Of a DNA stretch of 64,000 bases, positions 766 through 31,518 are shown piece by piece. This DNA is from Escherichia coli (GTDB taxonomy: Bacteria > Pseudomonadota > Gammaproteobacteria > Enterobacterales > Enterobacteriaceae). Position 1 is the stretch's first letter; the number at the start of each line of letters is the position of its first letter. The notes beneath the pieces were generated by a model. That model had not been told where the DNA came from. It made no database searches and saw only the letters and a program-made list of their open reading frames with translations. The position numbers and the translations under genes are program-made. The stretch is taken from the NCBI RefSeq assembly GCF_003334305.1, contig NZ_QOWS01000009.1, one strand, 5' to 3'.

Positions 766-2169
766 GTGTCACTTTCGCTTTGGCAGCAGTGTCTTGCCCG
801 ATTGCAGGATGAGTTACCAGCCACAGAATTCAGTATGTGGATACGCCCATTGCAGGCGGAACTGAGCGATAACACGCTGGCCCTGTACGCGCCAAACCGT
901 TTTGTCCTCGATTGGGTACGGGACAAGTACCTTAATAATATCAATGGACTGCTAACCAGTTTCTGCGGAGCGGATGCCCCACAGCTGCGTTTTGAAGTCG
1001 GCACCAAACCGGTGACGCAAACGCCACAAGCGGCAGTGACGAGCAACGTCGCGGCCCCTGCACAGGTGGCGCAAACGCAGCCGCAACGTGCTGCGCCTTC
1101 TACGCGCTCAGGTTGGGATAACGTCCCGGCCCCGGCAGAACCGACCTATCGTTCTAACGTAAACGTCAAACACACGTTTGATAACTTCGTCGAAGGTAAA
1201 TCTAACCAACTGGCGCGCGCGGCGGCTCGCCAGGTGGCAGATAACCCTGGCGGTGCCTATAACCCGTTGTTCCTTTATGGCGGCACGGGTCTGGGTAAAA
1301 CTCACCTGCTGCATGCGGTGGGTAACGGCATTATGGCGCGCAAGCCGAATGCCAAAGTGGTTTATATGCACTCCGAGCGCTTTGTTCAGGACATGGTTAA
1401 AGCCCTGCAAAACAACGCGATCGAAGAGTTTAAACGCTACTACCGTTCCGTAGATGCACTGCTGATCGACGATATTCAGTTTTTTGCTAATAAAGAACGA
1501 TCTCAGGAAGAGTTTTTCCACACCTTCAACGCCCTGCTGGAAGGTAATCAACAGATCATTCTCACCTCGGATCGCTATCCGAAAGAGATCAACGGCGTTG
1601 AGGATCGTTTGAAATCCCGCTTCGGTTGGGGACTGACTGTGGCGATCGAACCGCCAGAGCTGGAAACCCGCGTGGCGATCCTGATGAAAAAGGCCGACGA
1701 AAACGACATTCGTTTGCCGGGCGAAGTGGCGTTCTTTATCGCCAAGCGTCTACGATCTAACGTACGTGAGCTGGAAGGGGCGCTGAACCGCGTCATTGCC
1801 AATGCCAACTTTACCGGACGGGCGATCACCATCGACTTCGTGCGTGAGGCGCTGCGCGACTTGCTGGCATTGCAGGAAAAACTGGTCACCATCGACAATA
1901 TTCAGAAGACGGTGGCGGAGTACTACAAGATCAAAGTCGCGGATCTCCTTTCCAAGCGTCGATCCCGCTCGGTGGCGCGTCCGCGCCAGATGGCGATGGC
2001 GCTGGCGAAAGAGCTGACTAACCACAGTCTGCCGGAGATTGGCGATGCGTTTGGTGGTCGTGACCACACGACGGTGCTTCATGCCTGCCGTAAGATCGAG
2101 CAGTTGCGTGAAGAGAGCCACGATATCAAAGAAGATTTTTCAAATTTAATCAGAACATTGTCATCGTAA
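766..2169 (+). CDS. dnaA: Chromosomal replication initiator DnaA (GTG start, 467 aa)
   Basis: Track ORF 754..2169; protein from [13 protein letters not shown] matches E. coli DnaA; AAA+ Walker [11 protein letters not shown]; start moved to the internal GTG. Confidence 0.95.
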
Positions 2170-6808: not shown

Positions 6809-6912
6809 CGTGCCTGATGCGCTACGCTTATCAGGCCTACGAAAATCTTGCAATGTATTGAATTTTCATGATTTTGTAGGCCGGATAAGGCGTTCACGCC
6901 GCATCCGGCAAG
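6809..6912. repeat. REP/BIME-type extragenic palindromic repeats downstream of gyrB
   Basis: Two REP-like palindromes (gcctgatgcgctacgcttatcaggcctac and gtaggccggataaggcgttcacgccgcatccggc) in inverted orientation. Confidence 0.7.
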
Positions 6913-15182: not shown

Positions 15183-16433
15183 ATGATGGCGGGAACCGTT
15201 TTGTATCAGGACCCCGCCATGAAACAGATAACCTTTGCTCCCCGTAATCACCTGCTCACCAATACCAATACCTGGACGCCCGACAGCCAGTGGCTGGTAT
15301 TTGACGTGCGTCCTTCTGGCGCGTCGTTTACCGGCGAGAGCATTGAGCGTGTGAATATCCATACCGGCGAGGTCGAGGTTATCTATCGCGCGTCACAGGG
15401 CGCACACGTCGGCGTGGTGACCGTTCATCCGAAGTCAGCGAAATATGTTTTCATCCATGGCCCGGAAAATCCTGATGAAACATGGCATTACGACTTCCAT
15501 CATCGGCGCGGAGTCATTGTTGAAGGCGGCAAGATGAGTAACCTTGATGCGATGGATATTACCGCGCCGTATACGCCTGGAGCGCTGCGCGGCGGCAGCC
15601 ATGTGCATGTCTTTAGCCCGAACGGTGAAAGGGTGAGCTTTACCTATAACGACCATGTAATGCATGAACTCGATCCGGCGCTGGATTTGCGAAACGTCGG
15701 GGTTGCTGCGCCGTTTGGCCCGGTCAACGTACAAAAGCAGCATCCGCGTGAATACAGCGGTAGCCACTGGTGCGTGCTGGTGAGCAAAACCACGCCCACG
15801 CCGCAGCCTGGCAGCGATGAAATCAATCGTGCTTATGAAGAAGGATGGGTAGGAAATCACGCGCTGGCATTTATTGGCGACACACTTTCGCCAAAGGGCG
15901 AGAAAGTGCCGGAGCTGTTTATCGTTGAGTTACCGCAAGATGAAGCTGGCTGGAAAGCGGCAGGTGATGCGCCGTTAAGTGGAACGGAAACCACCCTGCC
16001 CGCGCCACCGCGCGGCGTCGTGCAGCGACGTTTAACCTTTACCCACCATCGGGCTTATCCGGGGTTAGTCAACGTCCCGCGCCACTGGGTGCGCTGTAAT
16101 CCGCAGGGTACGCAAATCGCGTTTTTAATGCGTGATGATAACGGCATTGTGCAACTGTGGCTTATCTCGCCACAGGGCGGCGAGCCGCGCCAGTTAACCC
16201 ATAACAAAACGGATATTCAGTCTGCATTTAACTGGCATCCGTCAGGAGAATGGTTGGGCTTTGTGCTGGATAATCGAATTGCTTGTGCCCATGCGCAAAG
16301 TGGCGAGGTTGAGTATTTAACCGAAAACCACGCCAATCCGCCTTCTGCGGATGCCGTGGTCTTCTCACCGGATGGTCAATGGCTGGCGTGGATGGAAGGT
16401 GGCCAGCTGTGGATCACCGAAACTGATCGCTAA
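15183..16433 (+). CDS. yidR: Uncharacterised protein YidR
   Basis: 416-codon track ORF; start may be the second Met at 15186. Confidence 0.8.
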   Translation: MMAGTVLYQDPAMKQITFAPRNHLLTNTNTWTPDSQWLVFDVRPSGASFTGESIERVNIHTGEVEVIYRASQGAHVGVVTVHPKSAKYVFIHGPENPDETWHYDFHHRRGVIVEGGKMSNLDAMDITAPYTPGALRGGSHVHVFSPNGERVSFTYNDHVMHELDPALDLRNVGVAAPFGPVNVQKQHPREYSGSHWCVLVSKTTPTPQPGSDEINRAYEEGWVGNHALAFIGDTLSPKGEKVPELFIVELPQDEAGWKAAGDAPLSGTETTLPAPPRGVVQRRLTFTHHRAYPGLVNVPRHWVRCNPQGTQIAFLMRDDNGIVQLWLISPQGGEPRQLTHNKTDIQSAFNWHPSGEWLGFVLDNRIACAHAQSGEVEYLTENHANPPSADAVVFSPDGQWLAWMEGGQLWITETDR

Positions 16434-16434
16434 A

Positions 16435-16767
16435 TCAGTTATCAGGCATTCTGGCCGGTGGAATAACCGCATTGGTGGCTTGCGCGTTGGCTTCGCTTTT
16501 TTCAACGCGCGAGCGCACCGAGCTGTCTTTGCGGAACACATCCCACGGCAGTAAAAGCGTGTCCATCACAGCGGTAAACGGCATATCGAGAATCGCCAGC
16601 GACTTAGTGCCCCAGTTGGTTTCATCGTCGCCAATCATGGTGGCGCTGGCGCGGGTGCCGGGATACGTTCCTTCTTTCCCCCCGGTATGGGACATCACGC
16701 TGGAGCATCCTCCGAGTAATGTCATTCCGCTGCATATCATGAACGCTAACAACACATTTCTTATCAT
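16435..16767 (-). CDS. yidQ: Putative lipoprotein YidQ
   Basis: Track ORF 16435..16842; start at MIRNVLLAFMICSGMTLLGGC (lipobox), 110 aa. Confidence 0.8.
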   Translation of the reverse strand: MIRNVLLAFMICSGMTLLGGCSSVMSHTGGKEGTYPGTRASATMIGDDETNWGTKSLAILDMPFTAVMDTLLLPWDVFRKDSSVRSRVEKSEANAQATNAVIPPARMPDN

Positions 16768-16941
16768 AATAAATTCATCTGTTGATCGTGGGTGTTGGCC
16801 TGATGAGTTATAGCGATCCCTTGCTGAAAATAACATCATCATTACGTCGCTCTGTGGCGGCTATCGCACTTTAACGTTTCGTGCTGCCCCCTCAGTCTAT
16901 GCAATAGACCATAAACTGCAAAAAAAAGTCCGCTGATAAGG

Positions 16942-16970
16942 CTTGAAAAGTTCATTTCCAGACCCATTTT
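16942..16970 (+). promoter_or_regulatory. Sigma-32 heat-shock promoter of ibpAB
   Basis: cTTGAAA, 14-bp spacer, CCCATtTT matches the sigma-32 consensus TTGAAA-N13-15-CCCCATNT; about 100 nt upstream of ibpA. Confidence 0.65.
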
Positions 16971-17071
16971 TACATCGTAGCCGATGAGGACGCGCCTGAT
17001 GGGTGTTCTGGCTACCTGACCTGTCCATTGTGGAAGGTCTTACATTCTCGCTGATTTCAGGAGCTATGATT

Positions 17072-17485
17072 ATGCGTAACTTTGATTTATCCCCGCTTTA
17101 CCGTTCTGCTATTGGATTTGACCGTTTGTTTAACCACTTAGAAAACAACCAGAGCCAGAGTAATGGCGGCTACCCTCCGTATAACGTTGAACTGGTAGAC
17201 GAAAACCATTACCGCATTGCTATCGCTGTGGCTGGTTTTGCTGAGAGCGAACTGGAAATTACCGCCCAGGATAATCTGCTGGTGGTGAAAGGTGCTCACG
17301 CCGACGAACAAAAAGAGCGCACCTATCTGTACCAGGGCATCGCTGAACGCAACTTTGAACGCAAATTCCAGTTAGCTGAGAACATTCATGTTCGTGGCGC
17401 TAACCTGGTAAATGGTTTGCTGTATATCGATCTCGAACGCGTGATTCCGGAAGCGAAAAAACCGCGCCGTATCGAAATCAACTAA
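17072..17485 (+). CDS. ibpA: Small heat-shock protein IbpA
   Basis: 137 aa from [20 protein letters not shown]; alpha-crystallin domain. Confidence 0.9.
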
Positions 17486-17596
17486 TTCCCTAAGGCCGCC
17501 TGGCGCGGCCTGACATCTCCATGCTCGCCGTCAGGGAGCATATGCGAATCTTCGGATTTGCAGGTACTTACTCGCTTCTTAGAAGGAGAAATGACT

Positions 17597-18025
17597 ATGC
17601 GTAACTTCGATTTATCCCCACTGATGCGTCAATGGATCGGTTTTGACAAACTGGCCAACGCACTGCAAAACGCCGGTGAAAGTCAGAGCTTCCCGCCGTA
17701 CAACATTGAGAAAAGCGACGATAACCACTACCGCATTACCCTTGCGCTGGCAGGTTTCCGTCAGGAAGATTTAGAGATTCAACTGGAAGGTACGCGCCTG
17801 AGCGTAAAAGGCACGCCGGAGCAGCCAAAAGAAGAGAAAAAATGGCTGCATCAAGGGCTTATGAATCAGCCATTTAGCCTGAGCTTTACGCTGGCTGAAA
17901 ATATGGAAGTCTCTGGCGCAACCTTCGTAAACGGTTTACTGCATATTGATTTAATTCGTAATGAGCCTGAACCCATCGCAGCGAAGCGTATCGCTATCAG
18001 CGAACGCCCCGCGTTAAATAGCTAA
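17597..18025 (+). CDS. ibpB: Small heat-shock protein IbpB
   Basis: 142 aa from [20 protein letters not shown]; tandem paralogue of ibpA. Confidence 0.9.
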
Positions 18026-18040
18026 CTAGCTATTCTCTTT

Positions 18041-18069
18041 GCCCCGCCATTCTGGTGGGGCTTTTTTTA
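18041..18069 (+). terminator. Rho-independent terminator of ibpAB
   Basis: Hairpin gccccgccattctggtggggc followed by tttttttat. Confidence 0.75.
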
Positions 18070-18220
18070 TCTTTCTTCTTCAACAATGCGTTAAATTTCG
18101 CCTGTTTAAGATATTTCGGCACGTTCTTTCCCGTGATAATGTGCGCTATAAGGCAAATCTGCTTCACCGATTCAGCCATAATCCGTAGCAATTAAAATGT
18201 TATCTCAAGAGAAATGGACG

Positions 18221-19882
18221 ATGAGTGATATAGCATTAACGGTCAGTATTCTGGCTTTGGTGGCAGTCGTCGGTTTGTTTATCGGCAACGTCAAATTTCG
18301 CGGCATAGGATTAGGTATTGGCGGCGTGCTGTTTGGTGGGATCATCGTCGGCCATTTTGTTTCTCAGGCGGGGATGACATTAAGTAGCGATATGCTGCAT
18401 GTTATTCAGGAATTTGGCCTGATCCTGTTCGTTTATACTATCGGGATTCAGGTAGGGCCGGGCTTCTTTGCCTCATTGCGCGTCTCCGGATTACGCCTCA
18501 ACCTGTTTGCTGTTCTGATCGTCATCATCGGTGGTCTGGTTACCGCCATCCTGCATAAACTGTTTGATATTCCACTGCCGGTAGTGCTGGGGATTTTCTC
18601 CGGTGCGGTTACCAATACGCCAGCGCTGGGGGCAGGGCAGCAGATTTTGCGCGACCTGGGTACACCAATGGAAATGGTCGATCAGATGGGGATGAGTTAC
18701 GCGATGGCGTATCCATTCGGCATTTGCGGGATTTTGTTCACCATGTGGATGTTGCGGGTTATTTTCCGCGTCAATGTCGAGACAGAAGCTCAGCAGCACG
18801 AGTCTTCACGCACCAATGGCGGCGCGCTGATCAAGACTATCAATATTCGCGTTGAGAACCCTAACCTGCATGATTTAGCCATTAAAGATGTACCGATTCT
18901 CAACGGCGACAAAATTATCTGCTCGCGTCTGAAACGCGAAGAAACCCTAAAAGTTCCTTCGCCAGATACCATTATCCAACTGGGCGATTTGCTGCATCTG
19001 GTGGGGCAGCCAGCGGATTTACATAATGCGCAACTGGTGATTGGTCAGGAGGTCGATACTTCGCTGTCCACGAAAGGCACTGATTTGCGCGTCGAGCGTG
19101 TGGTGGTCACCAATGAAAACGTGCTCGGAAAACGTATTCGCGACCTGCACTTTAAAGAACGCTATGACGTTGTTATCTCGCGCCTGAACCGTGCCGGGGT
19201 CGAACTGGTCGCCAGTGGCGATATCAGCCTGCAGTTCGGCGATATCCTCAATCTGGTGGGGCGTCCGTCCGCAATTGATGCCGTTGCCAATGTGCTGGGG
19301 AATGCGCAGCAAAAACTGCAACAGGTTCAGATGCTGCCAGTGTTTATTGGCATCGGGCTTGGCGTATTGTTAGGTTCTATTCCCGTCTTTGTGCCTGGGT
19401 TCCCGGCCGCGTTGAAACTGGGGCTGGCGGGCGGTCCGCTGATTATGGCGTTGATCCTCGGGCGTATCGGCAGTATCGGCAAGCTGTACTGGTTTATGCC
19501 GCCAAGTGCCAACCTCGCGCTGCGGGAGCTGGGGATCGTGCTGTTCCTCTCGGTCGTTGGTCTGAAATCTGGTGGGGATTTTGTGAATACCCTGGTCAAT
19601 GGCGAAGGGCTAAGCTGGATTGGTTATGGTGCCCTGATCACCGCCGTTCCGCTGATTACTGTTGGCATTCTGGCGCGGATGTTAGCCAAAATGAATTACC
19701 TGACCATGTGCGGGATGCTGGCAGGTTCCATGACCGATCCTCCGGCGCTGGCGTTTGCTAATAATCTTCATCCAACCAGTGGTGCGGCGGCGCTCTCTTA
19801 CGCCACTGTCTATCCGTTAGTGATGTTTCTGCGCATTATCACCCCCCAATTACTGGCGGTGCTCTTCTGGAGTATCGGTTAA
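18221..19882 (+). CDS. yidE: Putative transporter YidE (AAE family, two TrkA-C/RCK_C domains)
   Basis: Track ORF 18197..19882; start at [18 protein letters not shown] to give 553 aa. Confidence 0.85.
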
Positions 19883-31354: not shown

Positions 31355-31442
31355 AACTGTGATCGATACTCAACTATGCCCTAAATACGTCAAAATTCGT
31401 GCCGAAATTGCGCGTTCTGCGCGGAACACGTATACTTTCAGT

Positions 31443-31518
31443 GTTGACATAATACAGTGTGCTTTGCGGTTACCAGCCGCAGGCGGCTGATGAAACCTCG
31501 CTCCGGCGGGGTTTTTTG
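31443..31518 (+). ncRNA. istR: IstR-1 antitoxin sRNA (longer IstR-2 isoform would start upstream, near 31370-31380)
   Basis: About 75-nt unit ending in an intrinsic terminator (GC-rich stem plus tttttt at 31512-31517); its 5' 20 nt ttgacataatacagtgtgct is near-identical to 31189-31208 in the tisAB leader, so the two RNAs are complementary; TATACT -10 at about 31432. Confidence 0.6.

Follow-up and report, generated by a model that had tools for sequence, protein, structure and literature searches.

The sigma-32 promoter of the Escherichia coli ibpAB operon and a predicted SD-masking hairpin before each of its genes

The ibpAB locus

We analysed a window of 64,000 nt of Escherichia coli DNA (assembly GCF_003334305.1, contig NZ_QOWS01000009.1), in which positions 16850–18100 correspond to the ibpA–ibpB locus. 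Several complete E. coli chromosomes are 100% identical to this part of the window, and the ibpAB stretch was found in 5420 of 5426 complete E. coli genomes, with one copy in each. RefSeq gives the order of genes and features as yidR, yidQ, a ROSE feature, ibpA, ibpB and yidE. Both operon genes are annotated by RefSeq and, like the promoter elements, the leader, the hairpins and the terminator described below, lie on the plus strand: the ibpA coding sequence (17072–17485) specifies a small heat-shock protein of 137 amino acids, and the ibpB coding sequence (17597–18025) a protein of 142 amino acids. The operon is closed by an intrinsic terminator at 18041–18068, which consists of a 9-bp GC stem followed by T7 (−16.7 kcal/mol). 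This site downstream of ibpB was the sole terminator-like site returned by a terminator scan of 16400–18300.

The control region of ibpAB is already known and annotated, and the main reading previously made of it from the sequence, a heat-shock promoter followed by a structured leader that is mirrored before ibpB, is correct. Our comparative set comprised 80 loci from Enterobacteriaceae, taken from one genome per species, and yielded 74–77 distinct sequences.

The sigma-32 promoter

The sigma-32 consensus is said to combine a −35 element CTTGAAA with a −10 element CCCCATNT, reportedly as set out by Nonaka and colleagues in 2006. Upstream of ibpA, a −35 element CTTGAAA (16942–16948) is followed after a 13-nt spacer by a −10 element ACCCATTTT (16962–16970), with matches to CCCCATNT at 7 of 8 positions. 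Written as CTTGAAA-N14-CCCATTTT, the promoter spans 16942–16970, and with the preceding A the −10 element becomes (A)CCCATTTT; read as CTTGAAA, 13 nt and ACCCATTT (7/8 matches), it agrees with the −35/−10 consensus at a spacing of 13–15 nt. The pattern CTTGAAA-N14-CCCATNT has a single match on both strands of the 64 kb, even when one mismatch is allowed, against a chance expectation of 0.11. Among the upstream regions of Enterobacteriaceae (77 distinct sequences), the −35 element never changes and CCCATTTT hardly does; the spacer between them is free to vary. The uniqueness and conservation of the pattern thus bear out the near-consensus sigma-32 promoter of the sequence-only reading. No sigma-70 promoter was called by a promoter scan of 16400–18300, and the operon has been reported to be under sigma-32 control (bioRxiv 10.1101/2020.04.20.050740; PMC8155344). 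When sigma-32 rises, the promoter at 16942–16970 would fire, with transcription presumably starting at about 16977.

The ibpA leader and its ROSE-like thermometer

We infer the start at about 16977 from the position of the −10 element and the 96-nt leader reported for K-12, minus a 1-nt deletion present here. The resulting 5′ untranslated leader of ibpA (16977–17071) is 95 nt long, in keeping with the earlier estimate of roughly 100 nt, and ends at an ATG at 17072 rather than 17073. Its predicted fold has three hairpins. SL1 (16977–17015) is stable, at −18.5 kcal/mol at 37 °C. SL2 (17018–17039; −9.0 kcal/mol) pairs GACCU-G-UCCA with UGGAAGGUC and carries an invariant bulged G. SL3 (17043–17068), predicted to mask the SD and thermolabile according to the literature, is the weakest hairpin of the leader at −5.1 kcal/mol; its weakness relative to SL1 and SL2 fits the published account, in which some elements are stable and others unstable. 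In published Term-seq data, a 3′ end maps 3 nt downstream of SL1.

In SL3, CUC-G-CUG (17047–17053) pairs with CAGGAG (17058–17063), which includes the SD AGGAG (17059–17063), and G17050 is bulged. By their last two digits, the predicted pairs are C47–G63, U48–A62 and C49–G61, followed by the bulged G50 and then by C51–G60, U52–A59 and G53–C58. The same region gave a full-length match to the Rfam model ROSE_2 (RF01832) at 17007–17078, covering model positions 1–73 of 73; at 92.5 bits the match clears the gathering score of 65 (E = 6.8e-21), and the RefSeq ROSE feature lies at the same place. The Rfam score and the RefSeq annotation together uphold the ROSE-like thermometer that had been suggested before ibpA.

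The three-hairpin fold is well supported across species. In the 77 sequences, 88.1% of alignment cells are paired, compared with no more than 50% in controls with slid 3′ partners, and there are 175 compensatory cells compared with 74 ± 7 in shuffles; none of 500 shuffles reached the observed value. The hairpins are conserved in different ways: SL1 and SL2 covary, whereas the core of SL3 is invariant. The inner stem of SL1 shows compensatory changes in 7 of 9 pairs with 95% of cells paired, SL2 shows them in 3 pairs with 94.9% of cells paired, and the SL3 core pairs are unchanged in 75–77 of the 77 sequences. According to the predicted fold, SL3 would stay closed in the cool, when CUCGCU would mask the SD AGGAG around the bulged G; heat would then melt it and give ribosomes access to ibpA, a temperature dependence that we take from the literature.

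A second structured leader between ibpA and ibpB

The spacer between the two genes (17486–17596; 111 nt) is predicted to fold into four hairpins, HP1 to HP4. Over 74 sequences, 95.7% of cells are paired in this fold, compared with at most 53% in slid controls, and the 116 compensatory cells contrast with 37.5 ± 5.3 in shuffles, none of which (0/500) reached the observed number. This support, together with the thermometers that published work describes before both ORFs, sustains the proposal of a second structured leader within the operon.

HP2 (17521–17541; −10.1 kcal/mol) is conserved in both sequence and structure. It folds as AUGCUC-G-CC guca GG GAGCAU, where the bulged G is invariant and the 3′ arm includes GGGAG; 96.3% of its cells are paired, compensatory changes occur in 3 pairs, and the core GC.YGCCG...GGG.GC shows little or no variation. 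HP3 (17543–17562) is variable and dispensable. Compensatory changes occur in 6 of its 8 pairs, Kluyvera and the Citrobacter freundii group lack it, and it is followed by an extra hairpin in Enterobacter and Lelliottia. A 20-codon upstream ORF that runs from an ATG at 17542 to a TAA at 17604, overlapping the ibpB start, was rejected as a conserved feature because its ATG and the HP3 region are absent in the Citrobacter freundii group and Kluyvera, because the frame differs in Klebsiella, and because the variation in HP3 is compensatory, as expected of an RNA stem.

The last hairpin, HP4 (17571–17588), is the weakest of the spacer (−4.0 kcal/mol) and is predicted to mask the ibpB SD. It has the form CUC-G-CUUC uua GAAGGAG, in which G17574 is bulged, UCGCU occupies 17572–17576 and the SD AGGAG (17584–17588) is fully paired. 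All of its cells (100%) are paired in the 74 sequences and 6 of its 7 pairs are invariant; the seventh varies only from C–G to U–G, in 7 of 74 sequences, which yields the known UUGCU variant. The second SD-like element that had been noted before ibpB is indeed present, as AGAAGGAGA at 17581–17589, with the ibpB ATG following 8 nt on at 17597. On this model, HP4 would mask the ibpB SD by the same arrangement of CUCGCU, bulged G and AGGAG as in ibpA.

The ibpB leader has the structural properties of a ROSE-like element: it precedes a small heat-shock gene, it falls within the range of 2–4 hairpins, the last hairpin holds the SD, and the SD pairs with U(U/C)GCU around a bulged G. Its position is intercistronic; the primary transcript does not start with this leader. 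Searches of 17486–17610 with the ROSE, ROSE_2 and ROSE_3 models gave no match, even at E ≤ 10 with permissive filters.

Likeness of the two initiation regions

The window holds exactly two copies of the motif CTCGCT-N4-9-AGGAG, one before ibpA at 17047–17063 and one before ibpB at 17571–17588, against an expected 0.12; none of 100 shuffles contained two or more. This is the sense in which the arrangement can be called mirrored before ibpB, as the sequence-only reading put it. From the SD into the coding sequence, 17059–17097 and 17584–17622 are 87% identical. In both leaders the SD-masking hairpin is the weakest, with −5.1 kcal/mol for SL3 and −4.0 kcal/mol for HP4, compared with −8.4 to −18.5 kcal/mol for the others.

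A published report states that ibpB arose by gene duplication (bioRxiv 10.1101/2020.04.20.050740). Because the similarity between ibpA and ibpB runs upstream through the SD, the duplication took along at least the translation initiation region and, to judge from the sequences, evidently carried the SD-masking hairpin with it. Solid similarity between leader and spacer is limited to the repeat from the SD into the coding sequence and to the CTCGCT...AGGAG motif. Nhmmer profiles of the 77-sequence ibpA leader alignment found no match in the spacer at E ≤ 10, and pairwise local alignments of leader and spacer were marginal, with 67–159 of 2000 shuffles scoring as well.

A further likeness extends beyond the SD-masking hairpins. 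SL2, SL3, HP2 and HP4, the four hairpins that are conserved in sequence, may represent a single module in which a pyrimidine-rich 5′ arm, broken by a bulged G that never varies, pairs with an SD-like purine arm on the 3′ side; these purine arms read GGAAGG, CAGGAG, GGGAG and GAAGGAG, respectively.

A conserved GC hairpin after ibpA

HP1 (17493–17511), predicted at −12.8 kcal/mol, begins 8 nt beyond the stop codon of ibpA. Its core, GGCCGC-cuggc-GCGGCC, is GGCCGCCTGGCGCGGCC at 17494–17510; the stem has 6–7 pairs around a 5-nt loop, and 6 of the 7 pairs are G–C. The GC-rich hairpin reported earlier between the two genes is therefore present, with its coordinates shifted one to two bases to the left of 17495–17512. 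A hairpin occupies this position in all 77 distinct sequences (77/77), with 7–11 pairs and 40 stem variants, and begins 0–12 nt (mostly 4–7) after the ibpA stop codon; pairing holds in 91.4% of cells, with compensatory changes at 3 pairs. HP1 was also considered as a REP/BIME repeat and rejected, as the 64-kb window contains a single copy even when 3 mismatches are allowed.

The tail of HP1 is UGACAUCUCC, which has no U-tract, and the terminator scan made no call there. Hairpins that lack a U-tract are not expected to release polymerase on their own. Among the 77 sequences, at least 5 T in the 8 nt after HP1 were found in only 2, and a continuous U run in none. Lacking a U-tract, HP1 fails a defining feature of an intrinsic terminator, and most likely it is not a canonical, intrinsic terminator. 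The partial termination that the sequence-only reading had offered for this hairpin is therefore unlikely: the window shows no U-tract there, and just 2 of 77 species reach even the lenient T-rich threshold. Its other suggestion, a second structured leader within the operon, is supported, but the hairpin predicted to mask the SD is HP4, 60 nt downstream, and not HP1. No 3′ end at HP1 appears in the supplementary Term-seq tables of Adams 2021, which cover cells that were not heat-shocked; the operon terminator end is likewise missing from the curated list.

Temperature response and IbpA feedback

In ViennaRNA partition functions computed for 20–50 °C, both SDs were mostly paired throughout. The mean unpaired probability of 17060–17064, a stretch set one base 3′ of the SD, rose only gradually, with values of 0.26 at 30 °C and 0.29 at 42 °C, and the nearest-neighbour model placed half-melting of the isolated hairpins at 80 °C for SL3 and 71 °C for HP4. 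As the folding model does not reproduce melting at physiological temperatures, we draw no claim about thermosensing from it.

Thermosensing by both leaders rests on published experiments, as described in papers that cite them. Structure probing and reporter assays are given as the evidence that each ORF has an RNA thermometer in its 5′ UTR (bioRxiv 10.1101/2020.04.20.050740), and ibpA is said to influence the function of the ibpB thermometer (bioRxiv 10.1101/2020.04.20.050740). Citing papers credit the thermometers before both genes to Waldminghaus 2009 and Gaubig 2011. According to these sources, the structure probing and reporter tests proposed in the sequence-only reading have already been published (bioRxiv 10.1101/2020.04.20.050740; PMC10410725), and the lack of temperature dependence that it named as its own contradiction was reportedly not the outcome.

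The leaders also respond to a product of the operon. IbpA, and not IbpB, represses reporters of both genes (Miwa et al., bioRxiv 10.1101/2020.04.20.050740), and mutations in SL1 and SL2 weaken this repression in reporters (bioRxiv 10.1101/2020.04.20.050740). A direct interaction of IbpA with the ibpA and ibpB 5′ UTRs has been reported (PMC10474464), and IbpA binding promotes mRNA decay by polynucleotide phosphorylase (PNPase; PMC8155344). The latter source summarises sigma-32 control, the masking hairpin and PNPase-assisted decay (PMC8155344), and the two leaders have been described as consisting of multiple stem-loops whose sequence and structure are ‘not identical’ (PMC10410725). Drawing on this literature, IbpA would bind both leaders and repress their translation until aggregates titrate it away.

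Discussion

We are highly confident that the region analysed here is the layered control region of E. coli ibpAB, which combines a sigma-32 promoter, an SD-masking hairpin before each gene and feedback by IbpA. Current understanding is unchanged: ibpAB is a textbook example of heat-shock control in layers, comprising the sigma-32 promoter, a thermometer for each gene, IbpA feedback, RNA decay and proteolysis. Our additions are modest. The 74–77 distinct Enterobacteriaceae sequences give comparative support to the three-hairpin ibpA leader and to the four-hairpin fold between ibpA and ibpB; HP1 is universally kept after ibpA and yet has no terminator U-tract; and SL2 and HP2 carry an invariant bulged G facing an SD-like arm, like the SD-masking SL3 and HP4.

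For HP1, we infer a role as a protective 3′ stem-loop of the ibpA mRNA. After an endonucleolytic cut in the single-stranded stretch between HP1 and HP2, HP1 would shield the ibpA mRNA from 3′ exonucleases and would thereby help IbpA to exceed IbpB. RNase E is said to process ibpAB into monocistronic mRNAs, reportedly a finding of Gaubig and colleagues from 2011; our literature search for RNase E processing of ibpAB returned nothing relevant. A protective role would fit the excess of IbpA over IbpB, the decay of the mRNA by PNPase and the reported RNase E processing. IbpA is 3–10 times more abundant than IbpB (PMC10410725).

The same imbalance would also arise if HP1 were a weak, partial intrinsic terminator that leaves less ibpB than ibpA mRNA, and the stability of this GC-rich hairpin 8 nt past the ibpA stop, conserved in 77 of 77 sequences, is what such a terminator would offer. 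We nevertheless regard this as unlikely, because the hairpin runs into UGACAUCUCC and not into a U-tract, because the scan called only the site after ibpB, and because 2 of 77 sequences reach 5 T in 8 nt with no continuous U run anywhere. Somewhat more plausible, albeit still doubtful, is that HP1 belongs to the ibpB leader as a scaffold or platform for IbpA oligomers that aids repression downstream, as SL1 and SL2 do for ibpA. In the ibpA leader, too, a stable hairpin rich in GC (SL1) comes first and CCUGAC...UCCAU next, and this 14-mer recurs after HP1 with 12 of 14 matches, a score equalled by 84 of 2000 shuffles; mutations in SL1 and SL2 weaken IbpA repression in reporters (bioRxiv 10.1101/2020.04.20.050740). 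Against this, the similarity is marginal, the profile search shows no homology between leader and spacer, and at HP1 the structure alone is conserved, with its 40 stem variants. Such conservation of structure without sequence suits a generic barrier better than a specific protein site.

Two further explanations concern the region as a whole. The spacer would be the true 5′ UTR of a separate ibpB transcript if ibpB also had its own sigma-54 promoter inside ibpA, for which a site, TGGTAAATGGTTTGCT, does occur in the window at 17406–17421. The site has been placed at −185 to −168 from ibpB, and ibpB has served as a positive control for sigma-54 ChIP, citing Kuczynska-Wisnik 2001 (PMC2831329); however, a genome-wide ChIP-seq study of sigma-54 saw no more than background at ibpB and judged the promoter to be misannotated (PMC4591121), and the site deviates from TGGCAC-N5-TTGCW. 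Because it lies within codons of a conserved protein motif, its conservation is uninformative on promoter function, and we consider an own promoter for ibpB quite improbable. Least credible by far is that the hairpins are functionless inverted repeats that arose by chance. From the window sequence alone, the leader and the spacer reach modest whole-region folding z-scores of −2.19 and −1.62, respectively, but the 88% and 96% of cells paired in 74–77 sequences, against at most 53% in slid controls, and the 175 and 116 compensatory cells, unreached in 500 shuffles, already contradict this explanation.

The recurrence of the bulged G in SL2, SL3, HP2 and HP4 might bear on how IbpA recognises its own mRNAs; recent papers identify no RNA-binding motif in IbpA. 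A speculative combination, which we regard as rather unlikely, is that the bulged-G module is the target of IbpA oligomers, that HP1 is a 3′ stabiliser against PNPase that sets the IbpA:IbpB ratio, and that the spacer is a diverged copy of the ibpA leader that stems from the duplication.

Comparison with known systems

The ibpA thermometer described here is the same element as the one known from E. coli (ROSE_2, RF01832; Waldminghaus et al. 2009), with which it shares three hairpins, the UCGCU anti-SD, the bulged G and the location of the SD in the last and weakest hairpin. It differs from the K-12 sequence by the lack of one T between the SD and the AUG (CUAUGAUUAUG instead of CUAUUGAUUAUG), which shortens this spacer from 9 nt in K-12 to 8 nt and creates an in-frame AUG at 17066. 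The ibpB thermometer is at the same locus as the one described for E. coli by Gaubig et al. 2011, and 17486–17596 is identical to K-12; as described in citing papers, the two have in common multiple stem-loops, a last hairpin that masks the SD, and repression by IbpA.

HP1 resembles intercistronic stabiliser hairpins in being a stable, U-tract-free stem-loop just after the upstream cistron with the more abundant product. Such stabilisers are exemplified by the puf operon of Rhodobacter and by the REP hairpins in malEFG; HP1 differs from the latter in that it is not a REP element and occurs once in the window.

A search with the rhizobial ROSE model (RF00435) came up empty here at E ≤ 10. The ROSE elements of Bradyrhizobium and its relatives lie behind sigma-70-type promoters. 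The rhizobial elements and those of ibpAB are alike in their place in the 5′ leaders that small heat-shock genes carry, in their 2–4 hairpins and in the pairing of U(U/C)GCU with the SD around a bulged G; they differ in that the promoter here is of the sigma-32 type and that a second copy of the element lies between the two cistrons.

Bulged-G hairpins resemble Shine-Dalgarno-masking structures

Two predicted hairpins, SL2 in the ibpA leader (17018-17039) and HP2 in the ibpA-ibpB spacer (17521-17541), each carry an invariant bulged G facing an SD-like purine arm, with CCU-G-UCC opposite GGAAGG in SL2 and CUC-G-CC opposite GGGAG in HP2. In this they look like SL3 and HP4, the pair in which a Shine-Dalgarno is actually masked, and the sequence conservation of both SL2 and HP2 exceeds what pairing alone would demand. 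A 20-codon open reading frame (17542-17604) starts 3 nt 3' of the HP2 GGGAG, and its UAA stop overlaps codons 2-3 of ibpB. This frame is not conserved: Citrobacter and Kluyvera lack it, and in Klebsiella the frame differs. A genuine upstream open reading frame is therefore unlikely here.

Between the last two spacer hairpins, HP3 (17543-17562 in the window) and the ibpB Shine-Dalgarno-masking HP4, Citrobacter sp. Awk 4, Trabulsiella odontotermitis and Siccibacter colletis have inserts of approximately 50-130 nt (comparison-set loci L069:1758-2012, L036:1831-2012 and L055:1838-2012). These inserts are strongly structured, with folding energies of roughly -30 to -61 kcal/mol for the HP3-to-HP4 segments that hold them. 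The L069 insert resembles a small, inserted palindromic element.

A one-nucleotide deletion shortens the ibpA SD-AUG spacer

Between the ibpA Shine-Dalgarno and its start codon (17064-17071), the window has one T fewer than K-12, with CUAUGAUUAUG replacing CUAUUGAUUAUG, such that the spacer measures 8 nt here versus 9 nt in K-12. E. coli A28 and H15 share this loss, whereas the T is kept in K-12 and in all remaining aligned Enterobacteriaceae sequences. The deletion also gives rise to an in-frame AUG at 17066, merely 2 nt past the Shine-Dalgarno.

Published transcript ends and Rho signals within the operon

Published Term-seq data (Adams et al. 2021, PMC7815308, Supplementary file 3) place a strong 3' end 55 nt 5' of the ibpA start codon, at K-12 NC_000913.3 position 3867477 on the minus strand; its Rho score is 1.87, flagged 'Yes', and its intrinsic-terminator score is 1.48. 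We mapped this end to 17016-17018, which is 3 nt past SL1, the first predicted leader hairpin (16977-17015). A short 5' leader fragment containing SL1 alone therefore builds up without heat shock, arising either from premature Rho termination or from trimming back to SL1. At the other end of the operon, the same study lists a Rho termination region at the ibpB terminator (Supplementary file 2, PMC7815308), with a Rho score of 2.56 at K-12 position 3866437, corresponding to 18057. Read-through beyond the ibpB intrinsic terminator (18041-18068), towards yidE, therefore goes up under Rho inhibition.

Previously described elements in the window

Within the coding region of ibpA, 17406-17421 holds TGGTAAATGGTTTGCT, which has been published as a candidate sigma-54 promoter for ibpB. 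The candidate was listed, and pulled down by ChIP, in one study (PMC2831329); genome-wide ChIP-seq designated it 'misannotated' (PMC4591121). Elsewhere in the 64-kb window, the above-threshold Rfam matches were istR (31388-31517, plus strand, 149 bits); AsdA, which is antisense to dnaA (1276-1356, minus strand, 102 bits); tRNA-Sec (48321-48411, minus strand, 84 bits); and the ES036 sRNA (6833-6875, minus strand, 45 bits).
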